64,000 nucleotides of DNA, taken from sequence record PZ445431.1; one strand, written 5' to 3'. This DNA is from a phage. The position numbers and the translations under genes were made by a program. The notes under the pieces were generated by a model. It saw only the letters and a list, made by a program, of their open reading frames with translations. It did not search any database and was not told where the DNA came from. Shown here piece after piece: positions 1,175 to 32,350 of this stretch. Positions within the stretch are counted from its first letter, which is position 1; every line of letters begins with the position of its first letter.

Positions 1175-3049
1175 TTATTTAGCGCGAATGTCTTGATGTT
1201 TCACTCGACCCATAACCTCATGTTGTTTACCTGGGTTAAACGGACGAGCACCTGGATTTCCAAGATATCCACAAACTCGACGAGTTACCTCAAGAGTCTC
1301 AGGATCATGGTTGCCACAAATAGGGCATTTGAAACCATCCTCAGAAGCTATAGTTTCACCCAAGAACCCACATTCCCCACAAGAGTCTACTGGAGTATTA
1401 ATACCGAAGTAATGAACTTTACTTGCAGCATAGTTAATAACCCATTCCAGTGCATCAGGGAATCGTTTCATATCCGGTAATTCCACATAGGAAATGCACC
1501 CACCAGAAGCAATAGGAGTAAAGTTAGACTCATAATCAAACTTCACATTTGGAGCAACCTTACGTTCTACATCAAGGTGATGGGAATTAGTGTAATATCC
1601 TTTAGCCAGAATATCTTCATGCTCTGGGAAATACTCACGGTCTAGGCGACAGAAGCGATCACATAGAGATTCAGATGGTGTAGCATACAGACTATACCCT
1701 AATTGAGTCTCTTCCTTCTTCTGATCAGCACGATCACGCATGTATTGTAGCACACGTTGAACGAACTTGATACAAGACTCAGACATTGTATCTACATCTT
1801 TACCAAACATGAGTTGCAACATTTCGTGGCAGCCAATATATCCTAGGGATACAGAAGCACGCTTGTAGAAATGATCAAACACATATTCATCTGGCCCCAG
1901 ACGTAATCCAAAGGCTCCTGACGTATAGAGGATGGGCGCAGCTTTAGCTTGAATGTATTTTAAGCGATCAACCCTCCACTCCAATGCTTTTAACGCGGTA
2001 TCCACACGCAGCTCAAGCAGATCGAAGAATAGATCAATATTTCCTTCCGCTTCGATAGCGATTCGAGGAAGGTTTACGGAAACAACGCCTAAGTTGTTAC
2101 GACCAGAAGTTTCACCATCTTCCGCAGCAGCCAGGAATGAACGACAGCCCATAGAGACTTTGTAGTCCCCCGTAACTTCTACAACCTTATCATAACTGAT
2201 GTAGTCAGGATACATACGTTCAGCAGTACATTTCATAGCTAACTTCTTGATATCATAGTTAACATCACCAGGTTTCATGTTTACGCCCTCACGCAAAACA
2301 AATACCAGTTTAGGGAAGATAGCTGTACGTTTATTGATACCCAAACCATCCATACGTACTTCTAGTATTGCTTTCTGTACAAGACGTGCTTCCCAAGAAG
2401 TTCCTAGACCAAAACCAAAGGTAATAAACGGACTTTGACCATTAGAGTTGAACATCGTATTGATTTCATACTCCAGGCCCTGACAGGCATCGTAAACTTC
2501 TTTCTCAGTCATTTCCGTAGCCATTACAGATGCTTTAGCTTCATCCTTAGTCCAACGCTTTGCAAACGCATGATTCTTATCATAAGACTTACGAACATAA
2601 GGAGCCAATACTTCATCTAATCGGTCTACAGAAGTACCCCCATATTGATGTGAACTAACCTGAGTGATAATCTGAGCTGTGATAGCAGCCGCAGTAGTAA
2701 TAGAGTTTGGTGTACTGATTTCAGCATTACCAACCTTCATACCATTCTTCAACATATCTTCCAAAGCAACCAGGCAACAGTTAGTCATACCTAACGCAGC
2801 GTAATCAGCATCATGGAAGTGAATATCACCAATCATGTGAGCATTTCGAATCTGGATTGGCATTTCTTCCAGAATCAGATATTTACTCAATTCCCCTGCA
2901 AGCATATCCCTTTGTGTAGGGAAACGTTCTGAGGGCTTATTGGCATTATTAAACAGCAGCTCTTCATCTGCTGAACCTTCGATAATTTCTTTGCAGTTTC
3001 GAATCAAGGACTGCATTCCTTTATACTTTAGTTCTTCATTGCGATTCAT
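1175..3049 (-). CDS. nrdD: anaerobic ribonucleoside-triphosphate reductase (class III RNR, glycyl-radical enzyme)
   Basis: 624 aa; C-terminal glycyl radical motif RVCGYLG preceded by Cys-rich zinc ribbon (CGECG...CPICG); length and layout typical of NrdD. Confidence 0.9.
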   Translation of the reverse strand: MNRNEELKYKGMQSLIRNCKEIIEGSADEELLFNNANKPSERFPTQRDMLAGELSKYLILEEMPIQIRNAHMIGDIHFHDADYAALGMTNCCLVALEDMLKNGMKVGNAEISTPNSITTAAAITAQIITQVSSHQYGGTSVDRLDEVLAPYVRKSYDKNHAFAKRWTKDEAKASVMATEMTEKEVYDACQGLEYEINTMFNSNGQSPFITFGFGLGTSWEARLVQKAILEVRMDGLGINKRTAIFPKLVFVLREGVNMKPGDVNYDIKKLAMKCTAERMYPDYISYDKVVEVTGDYKVSMGCRSFLAAAEDGETSGRNNLGVVSVNLPRIAIEAEGNIDLFFDLLELRVDTALKALEWRVDRLKYIQAKAAPILYTSGAFGLRLGPDEYVFDHFYKRASVSLGYIGCHEMLQLMFGKDVDTMSESCIKFVQRVLQYMRDRADQKKEETQLGYSLYATPSESLCDRFCRLDREYFPEHEDILAKGYYTNSHHLDVERKVAPNVKFDYESNFTPIASGGCISYVELPDMKRFPDALEWVINYAASKVHYFGINTPVDSCGECGFLGETIASEDGFKCPICGNHDPETLEVTRRVCGYLGNPGARPFNPGKQHEVMGRVKHQDIRAK

Positions 3050-16887: not shown

Positions 16888-17770
16888 AGATTCATAAATT
16901 AGAGAACAGCGAGCCGATTACGCTGAGTGAGTTTAGTGATTCCTACTAGGATAGCTATTCCACTGAATAGAGTCGGTGAGTTTAGAATGATCACCTGTTA
17001 GAGTTCCGAGTCCAGTCCGGTATATCCGGCCAAGTGACTAGAGTAACGAATATAGGTTCGAGACTTCTTGTAAAACTCGGGAGCTGTCCCGAAATCTCGT
17101 AAACTCTTCTCTAGTTTATGTTAGTGGGGTGTCGAACTGACTTATGTGATAACACTGCCGTCCTAGTATAAACGGTAATATCAAACCGTAACTGGTGGAA
17201 GATGCAGGTTCGAATCCTGCGGTCGGAAAGAATCAGATAACTCGGGCTTATACCGGATAAGCATTCGCTGCTGGAGTACATACTATGACGGTTCAGGAGG
17301 TACGCCACCTGATCAGTATTAGGTTAGAATCGAAACAGCTAAACCACGAGGAAACCTGACGGCCTCAACCAAACTCGGAACTCGGGATCACTGCCTAGTG
17401 TGTGCCCCGTTTAACCTGAGACTAGGCATCCAGCTTCGCATCGAAAATCGGAGGTGCGATTCTAACAGACCGCGTGAATATGAGAGTGGGAAACGCTGAC
17501 ATGAGAGATGTCACTAATGGTGCCCAATAGTACAGGTAATTCGCGATAATTCCTGTTGAGCGGCAGCAGTAGGCTGGGAGTCATGACCTAAGCCTAACCG
17601 AGTTCTTCACATACGGAGAACATAACCACAAAGTCACCCTGACTTAAACTGGAAGATATTGTCTGACGGAAGGGCTGCAGAGCTTAATCTGAGGGGGCTG
17701 ACCCTACCTACCATCGGGTATCTTTAAGAGCTTTTTCGAGAGTTCTTAAAAATACCTAACAAAAGGAATC
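16888..17770 (+). ncRNA. candidate structured non-coding RNA region (no ORF >=60 aa on the sense strand)
   Basis: About 0.88 kb directly downstream of consensus promoter 16859-16887; contains tRNA-like T-arm GCAGGTTCGAATCCTGC (17204-17220) without a pairing acceptor stem and several short hairpins. Confidence 0.35.
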
Positions 17771-25926: not shown

Positions 25927-26000
25927 ACATCCATAGCTCAATTGGTTAGAGCTACCGCCTCTTAAGCGGTAGGTTCTAGGTTCAAGTCCTTCATTGGAGA
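25927..26000 (+). tRNA. tRNA-Lys-like (anticodon CUU); acceptor/T stems imperfect
   Basis: Canonical D-arm GCTCAATTGGTTAGAGC and anticodon arm ACCGC-CTCTTAA-GCGGT; acceptor pairing poor by eye. Confidence 0.4.
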
Positions 26001-26010
26001 CCAAACAATT

Positions 26011-26084
26011 GCGGGTTAGATCTTTGGTAGAGATCGCTAGTCTCATAAGCTAGAAAGAGGTAGGTTCGATTCCTGCACCCGCTT
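26011..26084 (+). tRNA. tRNA with CAU anticodon (second copy)
   Basis: Acceptor GCGGGTT/CACCCGC region, anticodon arm CTAGT-CTCATAA-GCTAG, T-arm GTAGG-TTCGATT-CCTGC, encoded CCA. Confidence 0.6.
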
Positions 26085-26108
26085 CCAATTTAATAGAAGG
26101 ATTTCGAA

Positions 26109-27615: not shown

Positions 27616-27688
27616 GGGCGAATAGTGTCAGCGGGAGCACACCAGACTTGCAAGTCTGGTAGGGAGGGTTCGAGTCTCTCTTTGTCCA
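27616..27688 (+). tRNA. tRNA-like gene with non-canonical anticodon loop (6 or 8 nt around TTGCAA)
   Basis: Acceptor GGGCGAA/TTTGTCC (two G-U), D-stem GTGT/ACAC, stem CCAGAC/GTCTGG, T-arm GAGGG-TTCGAGT-CTCTC, encoded CCA. Confidence 0.45.
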
Positions 27689-27706
27689 CCAAATTAAAAA
27701 GAATGC

Positions 27707-28253: not shown

Positions 28254-28769
28254 ATGCTAACACAACAAGAATTAAAATCCGTGTTGTTATATAAACCAGA
28301 TACTGGAGAGTTTTTCTGGAAATATAGATCTGATTTAGATAGTCAATGGAATAGTAAATATGCTGGAACTAGGGCAGGATTTATTAATGAACTAGGCTAT
28401 TGGAAGATAACTCTAGGAAATACTAGCTGGTTAGCACATCGTCTAGCATTCTTATACATGACTGGGGAAATACCAGATCTAATTGACCACAAGGATCAAG
28501 ATAAGTCCAATACTAAATGGGATAACTTACGAATAGCCACTGTATCACAGAATCAGGCTAATGCTAAATTAAGGGTAGATAATACCTCTGGGTACAAAAA
28601 TGTAACTTGGCATAAGCAAAGAAATAAGTGGAAAGTAGAAGTACGTAAAGATGGCAAACTCCATTATGGTGGACTTTTTACAGAACTAGATAAAGCTGTA
28701 AATAAAGCTAATAATCTTAGACGTGAGTTATTCGGGGAATTTGCAGTATATGAAGAGTTTATGGGGTAG
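28254..28769 (+). CDS. HNH homing endonuclease with AP2-type DNA-binding domain
   Basis: Same architecture as 6957..7472 (ELK..LYKPDTG.F.W, IDHKDQDKSNTKWDNLR, AP2-like SGYKNVTWHK); stop lies inside the next tRNA acceptor stem. Confidence 0.8.
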   Translation: MLTQQELKSVLLYKPDTGEFFWKYRSDLDSQWNSKYAGTRAGFINELGYWKITLGNTSWLAHRLAFLYMTGEIPDLIDHKDQDKSNTKWDNLRIATVSQNQANAKLRVDNTSGYKNVTWHKQRNKWKVEVRKDGKLHYGGLFTELDKAVNKANNLRRELFGEFAVYEEFMG

Positions 28770-28856
28770 GTCAATCCAACGGCTGGCGCTGGACTCCGAC
28801 TTGAAATCGGTTGATCGTAGTGATACGGTGTAAGGGTTCGATCCCCTTACCTACCT
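28765..28856 (+). tRNA. tRNA-Ser (anticodon UGA), type II
   Basis: Perfect acceptor GGTAGGT/ACCTACC, anticodon loop CTTGAAA, long variable arm, T-arm AAGGG-TTCGATC-CCCTT, encoded CCA. Confidence 0.7.
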
Positions 28857-28879
28857 CCAATTAACTATAAGGAATCCTT

Positions 28880-29384: not shown

Positions 29385-29403
29385 CCAAAATTAAAAAATT
29401 CAT

Positions 29404-29432
29404 TTGCCTTCTCTCTTATTTCTTGTTATTAT
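29404..29432 (+). promoter_or_regulatory. early promoter variant (TTGCCT-N17-TATTAT)
   Basis: -35 at 29404-29409, -10 at 29427-29432. Confidence 0.55.
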
Positions 29433-29462
29433 ATTTATATAAATTAATGAGAGGGAAACCAA

Positions 29463-30058: not shown

Positions 30059-30133
30059 ATGCGTCCAGGAAAGTTTAAAAAAAAAAAAAAGCTAATTGGT
30101 CTAAAGAGTATAAAGAATATTTACTTAGTCTAG
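30059..30133 (+). CDS. possible mini-ORF (24 aa) containing an A14 homopolymer
   Basis: ATG after TAGGAAG; translation MRPGKFKKKKKLIGLKSIKNIYLV; coding status doubtful. Confidence 0.2.
   Translation: MRPGKFKKKKKLIGLKSIKNIYLV
30077..30090. repeat. A14 homopolymeric tract
   Basis: 14 consecutive A between tRNA-Ile and the third CAU tRNA. Confidence 0.95.
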
Positions 30134-30144
30134 TAAAACATAAT

Positions 30145-30217
30145 AGTTAGTTGGCAGAGTGGTTATGCACCTCCTTCATACGGAGCGACTACAGTGGTTC
30201 AAATCCACTACTAACTA
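30145..30217 (+). tRNA. tRNA with CAU anticodon (third copy)
   Basis: Perfect acceptor AGTTAGT/ACTAACT, anticodon loop TTCATAC, T-arm AGTGG-TTCAAAT-CCACT, encoded CCA. Confidence 0.6.
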
Positions 30218-30258
30218 CCATAAAAAAGAGCTAGAGATAGCTAAATATAGGAGCAAGT

Positions 30259-30453
30259 GTGTTAACTGTTAAAATAATGTCTGCAAATGGTGGTGAAGAA
30301 ATTCATGATGGTAATAGCGTAGGATTTAATCCTAAAAATAAGAGTATTCATGTCTCGGGATTAGATCAAGCCATATTCCTAAAAGAGGATGAAGTCGCCT
30401 ACGTTATGAATCAGAACGGTAAAACAGTTTCTGTTTACTACGGTAAGCTGTAA
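30259..30453 (+). CDS. hypothetical protein (64 aa)
   Basis: GTG/ATG start after TAGGAGC. Confidence 0.45.
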   Translation: MLTVKIMSANGGEEIHDGNSVGFNPKNKSIHVSGLDQAIFLKEDEVAYVMNQNGKTVSVYYGKL

Positions 30454-30820
30454 AGAACAGAGGATCAGGTCATTGTACCAGATCCTGCTGAGAAGAGAGT
30501 CCACATTCTATAAATGGCCGGGCGTGACAGCAGGAAGTAGACTGCAACTCCATGCTATCCAGGAGTATAAATGTAGAAGCTAAGACTTTAGATAGCCATT
30601 GTCTTAGCGTGAGCAATCACGTAGTTGCAACAGACCTGGAAGATCGCAACGTTAAAATCAAAGCTCCTGTGCTTATTAAACTGAATGGGACTATCAATCC
30701 ACAAGCCGGACTACGAGCGATTATCGGGTATTCACTTAATAAGCAAGCCTGCCTTCCAGTTTTTATCTTGCTTCTGGGTTAACAAAAAGCTGAGCCAAAT
30801 TCTAACATCAGGGAGATCTA

Positions 30821-31189
30821 ATGAAAGCATATCAAAGTCTTAAGTCTGGCGTAATTAACATTGTTCATAACAATCAGATCATTCAACTATATTCTAAAGA
30901 TGGTGAACTTAAACAGAAAGTTCTAGTCGAAGATCTAGAAGGTATCACACCTCACTTTGACCCTGAGGCCTTTCGCATTGTAGATGTGGAAGTGGTTCCT
31001 CAAGTCGAGGGTGGTCAGCACCTAAATGTCAATGTGTTAAGCCGTGATCAGCTTTTGGATGCACAGAAACATCCTGAAAAATATCCTCAGTTGACCATCC
31101 GTGTCTCTGGCTATGCTGTTCGATTTAACGCATTGACGCGTGAACAACAGAACGACGTTATTAGTCGTACATTTACTCAGGCGATATAA
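30821..31189 (+). CDS. grcA: GrcA/YfiD-like autonomous glycyl-radical cofactor (pyruvate formate-lyase C-terminal domain homologue)
   Basis: C-terminal [60 protein letters not shown] is near-identical to the glycyl-radical domain of E. coli GrcA/PflB (RVSGYAV motif); host-like codon usage. Confidence 0.85.
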
Positions 31190-31270
31190 TGGGGTTTGGA
31201 TACGATTTCTCCCAGCTACGCAAGGTAGTCGAGCAAACTCCATTTATCTCCCAAGTTTTAGGAGAAATGT

Positions 31271-31570
31271 GTGGATCGAGCATTAAGACGCCATCACCGG
31301 CAACGTGTGAAAAACAATCGCAAAAAGTATTGGACAGTCTTCCCACATGAAGAAAGTCCTAAGCGGTTAGGCATTATCACTACCACTCCTTGCATCTGTT
31401 CTTGTTGGATGTGTGGGAATCCTCGCAAATACTATAAGAATAGTAAAGCAGGCATGAAAATCTCGGAGATTAAAAAGATGGATGCAATGATTATGGGCAT
31501 CACCTTTACAGGTGGTATCTCTGATGAATTCGACGGTTTTGTAACTCAGGATATTGTCGAAATTATCTAA
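31271..31570 (+). CDS. hypothetical Cys-rich protein (99 aa)
   Basis: GTG start 8 nt after TAGGAG; CxCxC...C cluster. Confidence 0.45.
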   Translation: MDRALRRHHRQRVKNNRKKYWTVFPHEESPKRLGIITTTPCICSCWMCGNPRKYYKNSKAGMKISEIKKMDAMIMGITFTGGISDEFDGFVTQDIVEII

Positions 31571-31579
31571 TTAATAATA

Positions 31580-31617
31580 AACCCCAGCTATTGAATAGGT
31601 AGTCTGGGGTTTTCTTG
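31580..31617 (+). terminator. rho-independent terminator
   Basis: ACCCCAG ... CTGGGGT stem followed by TTTCTTG. Confidence 0.65.
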
Positions 31618-32274: not shown

Positions 32275-32291
32275 TTTCGTAAATAATTCAT

Positions 32292-32320
32292 TTGCTAAAA
32301 CCCTCTCCTTTTGATATAAT
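32292..32320 (+). promoter_or_regulatory. T5-type early promoter
   Basis: TTGCTA 32292-32297, TATAAT 32315-32320. Confidence 0.7.
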
Positions 32321-32350
32321 ATTTATATAAATTGATGAGAGGGCTTTGAA

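Follow-up and report, generated by a model that had tools for sequence, protein, structure and literature searches.

A GrcA-type glycyl-radical gene and an optional cassette for a putative structured RNA at the end of the tRNA cluster of a T5-like phage

The stretch of phage DNA considered here, in the following called the window, has a length of 64,000 nucleotides (nt; sequence record PZ445431.1), and the part under study, positions 30454 to 31189, contains a gene for a small glycyl-radical protein, grcA, together with the leader in front of it. The surrounding sequence (30200–31600) is 100% identical to Escherichia phage TrudiRoth (Bas30, MZ501109; Demerecviridae, Epseptimavirus) and 95–99% identical to many T5-like phages of Salmonella and Escherichia, with 439 matching records. 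It forms the end of a cluster of 21 tRNAs which were located with ARAGORN and Rfam between about 17.2 and 30.2 kb of the window. The final tRNA of the cluster is tRNA-Met (CAU; 30145–30220, plus strand), and in T5-type phages grcA lies directly 3' of it. In the window the interval between the two genes holds two optional cassettes on the plus strand, ORF64 (phrog_3909; 30259–30453) and the leader itself, about 340 nt with conserved secondary structure from about 30458 to 30797. The reading preferred here, to which a probability of roughly 0.7 is assigned, is that the phage GrcA protein serves as a spare part and that the leader is a separate optional cassette which would specify a structured RNA co-transcribed with the tRNAs.

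The grcA-like coding sequence begins with ATG at 30821 and ends at 31189 on the plus strand, where the stop codon and the ATG of the following small open reading frame (ORF; 31189–31350) overlap. It encodes an autonomous glycyl-radical cofactor of 122 amino acids (aa) with no cysteine. The glycyl-radical domain, residues 62–122 (31004–31189, plus strand), was recognised by Pfam, PDB and blastn matches and by its motif. Residues 62–103 match the Pfam family PF01228 (Gly_radical) with 66.3 bits against a gathering cut-off of 22.2 (E = 4.1e-18), residues 50–121 align with E. coli GrcA (PDB 6owr; 2.2e-29), and residues 61–121 align with positions 698–758 of PflB (1.6e-26), a pyruvate formate-lyase (PFL). 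The sequence RVSGYAVRF is intact at residues 94–102, with the radical glycine G97 encoded by nucleotides 31109–31111. A full-length match to PHROG 1209 was also obtained, with residues 1–122 on profile positions 1–121 (159.5 bits, 7e-47). The 122-aa frame described in an initial annotation of this DNA, borne out by its ATG start and the Pfam and PDB matches, is on the evidence of its sequence a real gene for an autonomous glycyl-radical protein of the already known GrcA type. Homology to GrcA and PflB including RVSGYAVRF, as asserted there, was found as well; the near-identity also asserted was not. The phage protein shares 55 of 74 residues with E. coli GrcA; in the common stretch of 61 residues 49 (80%) agree with GrcA and 47 (77%) with PflB.

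Two results weigh against this assignment. The GrcA equivalog TIGR04365 (spare_glycyl) scores 118.3 bits, which is under its trusted cut-off of 170 bits, and aligns only to residues 54–121; and no likeness to E. coli GrcA is detectable in the N-terminal 50 residues or so. TIGR04365 is the best-scoring NCBIfam family for the phage protein, and the T4-type protein is also under the cut-off, at 153.3 bits. The stand-alone size of 122 aa, the lack of cysteine and the alignment of only the last 61 residues or so to PflB fit the GrcA type. Like E. coli GrcA (YfiD) the protein is small and cysteine-free, with a PFL-type glycyl-radical domain in its C-terminal 70 residues or so; it differs from it in its divergent N-terminus and in belonging to a virulent phage, with its gene in a tRNA operon. 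To the C-terminal domains of PflB and TdcE the gene has about 75% nucleotide identity, and it differs from these enzymes in the absence of the entire catalytic barrel and of the Cys418/Cys419 pair. As it has neither cysteine nor the PFL barrel, the 122-aa protein cannot itself be a formate acetyltransferase. The name 'putative formate acetyltransferase' given to it in TrudiRoth (bas30_0136), and the names 'pyruvate formate-lyase', 'ribonucleotide reductase subunit' and 'putative DNA polymerase' used in other public records, are wrong or misleading.

Homologues were found by tblastn in 1,584 phage records. About 420 of these are T5-like with at least 90% identity. Most of the remainder, at about 50% identity, come from T4-like phages (more than 1000 records) or from other large phages of enterobacteria, Aeromonas and Klebsiella; many carry the annotation 'autonomous glycyl radical cofactor GrcA' or 'glycyl radical cofactor'. 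Y06I of phage T4, which the initial annotation had named as the precedent for a spare glycyl-radical module, is the correct one: it was shown biochemically to reconstitute oxygen-cleaved PFL (Wagner et al. 2001, as cited in PMC12338860). The T4-like GrcA is likewise a phage-encoded spare cofactor of about 120 aa and belongs to the same PHROG family, with 59% identity to the protein of the window in a MAFFT alignment covering most of both proteins, and T4 also encodes NrdD. In the T4-type protein (contig L140, 1501–1863; Escherichia phage teqhad) the last 60 residues or so match E. coli GrcA completely, as compared to about 80% identity in the T5-type, and the T4-type gene lies in the regB/vs region rather than in a tRNA operon. 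This suggests from the sequences that different histories or constraints may have acted on the same module in the two lineages.

In an alignment of ten phages the variable columns of grcA fall on codon positions 1, 2 and 3 in a ratio of 14:6:58, hence the gene is under purifying selection. Its site after tRNA-Met is kept at 87–100% nucleotide identity in Tequintavirus and Epseptimavirus genomes, which indicates an old resident gene. The initial annotation had proposed a recent capture from the host; on this view grcA and its leader would have come jointly from the grcA or pflB locus of E. coli, with a GC-rich leader as the remnant of the host flank. The host-like C-terminal domain would agree with this, as would the GC content of the leader, which at 43.6% slightly exceeds the window mean of 39.5%. 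This GC excess is a weak sign: it corresponds to the 87th percentile window-wide and the 90th locally, lies about 1.2–1.4 standard deviations (around 1.3) above the mean of windows of the same length, and is similar to the 44.1% of the 3' half of grcA. When 30454–31189 was compared by blastn (word size 11) with 5,426 complete E. coli genomes, every genome was matched, and only by query positions 551–736, the 186 bp of the radical domain (31004–31189), with pflB and tdcE as the matching genes (about 75% identity). The leader had no match in any of these genomes, an outcome which the initial annotation had itself named as refuting its proposal. Its own matches are confined to T5-like phages, many of which do not have it, and grcA is syntenic across the T5-like family. 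Recent joint capture is therefore extremely improbable; the leader is not host-derived, and there is no sign of recent capture.

Homology, the intact motif, purifying selection and conserved synteny are the basis on which a role of the phage protein can be proposed. In the established model (PMC12338860; Wagner et al. 2001), the activase PflA radicalises GrcA at its glycine; GrcA then takes the place of the C-terminal domain that oxygen has severed from PflB, and the radical is handed to Cys419 of PflB. The phage protein most likely acts on host PflB, possibly also on TdcE, in the way E. coli GrcA does, as its whole domain is kept at about 80% identity. grcA would be expressed early by the host sigma-70 RNA polymerase, within the tRNA operon and from a T5-type promoter near 29400. 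Judging from E. coli GrcA and T4 Y06I, host PflA would place the radical on G97, and the radical-bearing protein would dock on host PFL molecules from which oxygen had removed the C-terminal radical domain. Turnover of pyruvate into acetyl-CoA plus formate would thus be restored, and the supply of fermentative energy and acetyl-CoA could be sustained during phage replication in fluctuating low oxygen. An advantage in anaerobic or micro-oxic infection is a reasonable inference, already around and not new.

The window also encodes a class III anaerobic ribonucleotide reductase, NrdD (1175–3049, minus strand), as the initial annotation had noted. It is recognised by the Pfam family NRDD (1.3e-172), carries a Gly_radical domain of its own (9.8e-23) and adjoins the genes of the aerobic NrdA and NrdB. 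The small protein might serve this NrdD as a spare radical domain, or a different glycyl-radical enzyme, for example TdcE, instead of PflB. The presence of NrdD in the same genome would suit this idea, as would the name 'ribonucleotide reductase subunit' in some GenBank records and the nucleotide match to tdcE, which equals that to pflB. Between the C-terminus of NrdD and the GrcA protein BLASTP gave no significant similarity (E = 16), in contrast to the 77–80% identity with the PflB and GrcA domains, which makes such a function improbable; for TdcE it retains some plausibility because TdcE is a paralogue of PflB. A point to be set against the proposed role is that dependence on host PflA is assumed and that no activase is annotated in TrudiRoth, an observation on the annotation and not an exhaustive scan of the ORFs. 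As none is annotated, both GrcA and NrdD presumably depend on host activases.

The leader matches T5-like phages only, 336 records in total, 149 of them with a coverage of at least 80%. The interval between tRNA-Met and grcA is variable in these phages. It measures 13 nt in a T5-type contig of 121,750 bp (L082) and 23 nt in another (L091); it contains ORF64 and 40 nt in Lindwurm and many others, the complete leader without ORF64 in TrudiGerster and GSW6, only hairpin H1 and module B in Eps7, and everything, ORF64 and the full leader, in Sds2 and the window. Modules of the leader also stand ahead of other genes in UTK0009, Pantoea phage AAS21 and a metagenome contig (L144). In Klebsiella phage Roth50 module A2 is found beside a tRNA-Ser-like gene, and in Serratia phage Slocum A1, A3 and B keep their order, with a T5-type promoter after them. 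Several genes of HNH homing endonucleases are scattered among the tRNA genes (28254–28769 in the window, and in the annotation of the tRNA region of TrudiRoth), and they may drive the cassette-like mosaicism of the interval between tRNA-Met and grcA.

The leader of the window is composed of the following elements, all on the plus strand. Hairpin H1 (30462–30485; GGAUCAGGU / ACCAGAUCC) directly follows the tRNA CCA in phages without ORF64, and its stem shows compensatory exchanges of U-A to C-G and of G-C to A-U. Module A1 (30499–30545) consists of a hairpin with a UAUAAAUG loop (30499–30523) and a hairpin of the form GUGAC-GCAG-GAAGUAGA-CUGC (30524–30545). Module A2 (30552–30608) is an H-type pseudoknot of helix P (30552–59 with 30591–99) and helix Q (30579–86 with 30601–08), with AGGAGUAUAAAUGUAG in the loop. 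Module A3 (30624–30669) is a second H-type pseudoknot with helix X (30624–28 with 30646–50) and helix Y (30636–41 with 30664–69). Module B (30671–30744) has a bulged helix of 15 base pairs (30671–86 with 30730–44) which encloses a hairpin with the loop CUAUCAA (30687–30700) and a second, variable hairpin. The 3' module (30744–30797) contains CAAG/CUUG and CCAG/CUGG pairings (30744–30777) and then the invariant AAAAAGCUGAGCCA (30784–30797); a repeat of the invariant AAAAAGCTGAGCCAAATTC was not found elsewhere in the window. The sequence AGGAGUAUAAAUGUAG (30566–30581) in the loop of A2 is a perfect Shine-Dalgarno sequence followed by a start-stop; it is conserved in Epseptimaviruses, a few of which have single-base variants, and is unchanged in Roth50.

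At least eight helices of the leader, two pseudoknots among them, are maintained by compensatory changes, and across the copies of the leader the stems differ and the loops are constant. The helix of module B occurs in at least seven sequence versions (window, Eps7 and L107, Sds2, TrudiGerster, Pantoea, Slocum, and L144), which are all complementary. When 14 sequences were aligned with MAFFT, 89.5% of the cells of module B were paired as compared to 33–42% with the partner strand slid, and 13 pairs had double changes; none of 500 shuffles reached the observed values, a control which does not give a probability. In a model-fitted alignment of 16 distinct sequences double changes were found in 14 of the 15 helix pairs, with 93% paired; for module B 18 pairs with double changes were counted, with 90% of the cells paired against 33–44% in the slid controls. 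The remaining elements were scored on alignments made by hand, for the pseudoknot helices because MAFFT failed on the distant arms of Slocum and GSW6. The A3 pseudoknot yielded 88% paired cells against 33–45% in slid controls, the A2 pseudoknot 98% against 20–38% with double changes in Roth50, and the three 5' hairpins 97% against 30–41%. Helix Y alone has six versions (CUGGAA/UUCCAG, CAGGA/UCCUG, CAGGAG/CUCCUG, CGGGA/UCCCG, CCCUAGA/UCUAGGG and CAGGGG/CUCCUG), and new compensated variants were present in metagenome contigs.

Several observations count against a structured RNA. The leader sequences are closely related to each other, several of the alignments are manual, and the covariation statistics are not tree-aware. 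The minimum free energy of the whole leader (367 nt) is no better than that of shuffled sequences, with z = -0.25 for the plus and z = -1.84 for the minus strand in a model that leaves pseudoknots outside. In the copy of the window helix Y contains two mismatched positions and helix B a single one. The choice of strand relies for the most part on the orientation of the genes, and in the hand alignments G-U pairs outnumber A-C pairs only by 13 to 7. The unremarkable fold energy, the unpaired positions in helices Y and B, the close relationship of the sequences and the mosaic presence and absence of the leader could also be understood if it were a mosaic of cassettes which have no function and decay in a tRNA region prone to recombination, the covariation stemming from a few recombinant lineages. 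This is rather unlikely in view of the pairing which persists in the module B helix through at least seven versions and in helix Y through six, of the constant loops and varying stems across phages of Serratia, Klebsiella and Pantoea, and of the conservation of the A1 hairpin in unrelated prophages.

The only ORF within the leader, ORF76 (bas30_0135; phrog_19031; 30552–30782, plus strand), is annotated as a hypothetical protein of 76 aa and is probably no gene, in line with the doubt voiced in the initial annotation. A small protein encoded by it could in principle be what is conserved in the leader; it is annotated in both TrudiRoth and TrudiGerster, matches a PHROG family, and has one in-frame deletion of 3 nt in GSW6. 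In the same ten phages used for grcA, though, its variable columns are spread over codon positions as 8:7:9, as opposed to 14:6:58. ORF76 has no Shine-Dalgarno sequence and no match in Pfam or NCBIfam. Module swaps alter the sequence and length of its C-terminus, giving 58, 62, 76 or 80 aa in different phages, and in UTK0009 the start codon and the first 24 codons are deleted. It overlaps the two covarying pseudoknots, and the correlated double substitutions track the helices and not the codons. That the conservation reflects such a protein is thus very unlikely, and ORF76 is probably a mis-annotation that was propagated into a PHROG family.

The T5-type early promoter nearest upstream of grcA lies at 29397–29455 on the plus strand (TTGCCT ... 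TATTAT ... ATAAATTAATGAGAGGG; repeat family D1/D2), and the next one, of the same repeat family, at 32285–32343. The two bracket a transcription unit of tRNA-Ile, tRNA-Met, ORF64, the leader and grcA. Between 29900 and 31900 neither a T5-type promoter nor a plus-strand terminator was found; a scan for the promoter consensus gave only weak matches of 9 out of 12 positions, at the rate expected by chance. As the leader has no promoter of its own and no plus-strand terminator occurs in the scanned stretch, it is most likely, as far as the sequence tells, an internal part of an early polycistronic transcript of tRNAs and mRNA. At its 3' end CCA is followed by AAUU, and the same CCA-AAUU junction occurs at nine tRNA genes of the window, which suggests that the cassette is processed like a tRNA.

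A position directly 5' of grcA would also allow the leader to act in cis as its 5' untranslated region (UTR), as a riboswitch, a thermosensor or a stabiliser of the 5' end after removal of the tRNA, and hairpin H1 would become the new 5' end upon tRNA processing. Such a role is unlikely: grcA is present without the leader in most T5-like phages, the same modules stand ahead of unrelated genes in UTK0009, Pantoea phage AAS21 and contig L144, and no riboswitch family, the pfl/ZTP motif included, was matched at E<=10. The ancestral 5' UTR of grcA is short. It corresponds to 30798–30820 (plus strand; AATTCTAACATCAGGGAGATCTA, with the Shine-Dalgarno sequence GGGAG), which in phages without the insert directly follows the CCA of tRNA-Met. 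In the T5-type contigs L082 (1412–1503) and L091 (1402–1503) only 13–23 nt separate the CCA end of tRNA-Met from the start of grcA, and after tRNA processing the grcA mRNA of these phages would be expected to have an extremely short 5' UTR, hardly extending beyond the Shine-Dalgarno sequence.

The preferred interpretation of the 340 nt upstream of grcA is that of a cassette, separate from any captured host locus, which was inserted between tRNA-Met and grcA in some Epseptimaviruses. It would be built of independently occurring modules with helices held by compensatory substitutions. Structure and modularity are seen in the alignments, and with the shared operon and junction they make it most likely that the leader specifies a structured RNA which would be co-transcribed with the tRNAs and then cut out at the tRNA-like CCA-AAUU boundary.

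Comparison with known RNA families gave no assignment. At the gathering score no Rfam family (tRNA, tmRNA, RNase P, ZTP/pfl and group I intron included) matched the leader (30454–30820), and at E<=10 a cmscan of 30220–30900 yielded a single spurious snoRNA match outside the leader. For the homologous elements of Slocum, Roth50, AAS21 and UTK0009 Rfam likewise gave no family, only tRNAs and unrelated families around them. A search of 393 kb with a covariance model of module B returned no copies beyond the known ones, and motif scans of IMG/VR and metagenomes added only few sequences. In the literature on T5 stable RNAs, T5 pseudoknots and noncoding RNAs of Demerecviridae no paper describing the leader element was found.

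Four known RNAs, tmRNA, RNase P RNA, the ZTP riboswitch and the HK022 put RNA, resemble the leader in their pseudoknots or in their links to tRNA, pfl or early leaders, with a superficial likeness in a few short motifs, and none of them matched. Motifs like those of RNase P can be seen by eye (GAGAAGAGAGUCC, GCAACAGA); they have no support from covariance models and no consistent long-range pairing. For a tmRNA, suggested by the serial pseudoknots, the tRNA-like domain is lacking and ARAGORN was negative. CCGGGCGUGAC resembles the 5' part of the ZTP/pfl-motif riboswitch, yet the model did not match and the 3' CCGCCUGGGC subdomain is missing. To the PL/PR region of HK022 the leader has no significant similarity.

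The closest analogy, by description and not by sequence, is offered by the species 1 and 2 stable RNAs of phage T4 (rnaC, rnaD), which are structured non-tRNA RNAs of the T4 tRNA cluster, are processed together with the tRNAs, and have no known function. The leader differs from these by its greater length (about 340 nt), its modular build and its wealth of pseudoknots. A more far-reaching proposal is that it represents an undescribed family of modular, pseudoknot-rich RNAs in the tRNA operons of some T5-like phages of Escherichia, Salmonella, Klebsiella, Serratia and Pantoea, released at CCA-AAUU and sharing a hairpin with leader arrays of prophages. This is put forward tentatively, at slightly less than even odds.

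The shared hairpin is that of module A1. Its 22-nt core (GTGACRGCRGGAAGTAGACYGC) has 23 matches in IMG/VR, about 17 of which lie on prophage-sized contigs of 16–46 kb and not in T5-like genomes, and six matches in species-representative genomes (Citrobacter, Phytobacter, Sodalis and Serratia). The GUGAC-stem-GAAGUAGA hairpin is found in enterobacterial lambdoid prophages at a locus termed L117 and about 17 others (L112–L131, L134–L139), and its stem covaries (GCAG/CUGC, GCGG/CCGC, GCGG/CUGC) around the constant loop GAAGUAGA. In L117 (6255–7010) the motif is located about 170 nt downstream of a PL-like promoter, which itself comes after a cI-like repressor gene. It heads an ORF-free array of about 700 nt composed of hairpins and tRNA-like modules and closed by CACAAC/GUUGUG; such arrays sometimes contain real tRNAs (tRNA-Arg(UCU) or tRNA-Ile), with a weak DicF-like terminator at the end. 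A comparison of ten of these loci with Rfam gave no family for the array, only tRNAs and unrelated families. As the hairpin is common to the phage leader and the prophage arrays, it points to a common host or phage factor which recognises it. Its position and shape recall hairpins of the boxB type, which is a speculation by analogy; the hairpin might be a signal of this kind for antitermination or processing, or it might act as a decoy for a defence that targets RNA.

As an auxiliary gene of phages grcA itself adds little, Y06I of T4 being characterised and hundreds of T5-like records being annotated, and it reinforces the picture of enterobacterial phages which invest in running the fermentation of their host. 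What merits further attention is the leader, as a candidate for a structured RNA in a group of phages that is among the best studied. The tRNA clusters of T5-like phages are of current interest because their tRNAs counter tRNA-cleaving defences, and if the interpretation is true the leader RNA would add to the RNA biology of such clusters a new component that is open to experiment.

Some peculiarities of the tRNA region of the window may be added. Three tRNA calls are odd: at 27616–27691 ARAGORN reported a 4-nt anticodon (tgca) for a gene annotated as tRNA-Ala, at 17157–17228 a borderline tRNA match of Rfam (29.3 bits) was missed by ARAGORN, and at about 28765–28859 a tRNA-Ser (TCA) annotated in TrudiRoth was detected in the window by neither program. 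Around 26000–26100 the colinearity with TrudiRoth (MZ501109, 76000–77060) is broken by about 979 bp which TrudiRoth has in addition, comprising tRNA-Gly, small ORFs and a second pair of tRNA-Lys and tRNA-fMet; the window is thus a close relative or a variant assembly. The 14 consecutive A residues that lie between tRNA-Ile and tRNA-Met (30086–30099) correspond to only 6 A in a related metagenome contig (L143), which indicates a homopolymer of variable length.

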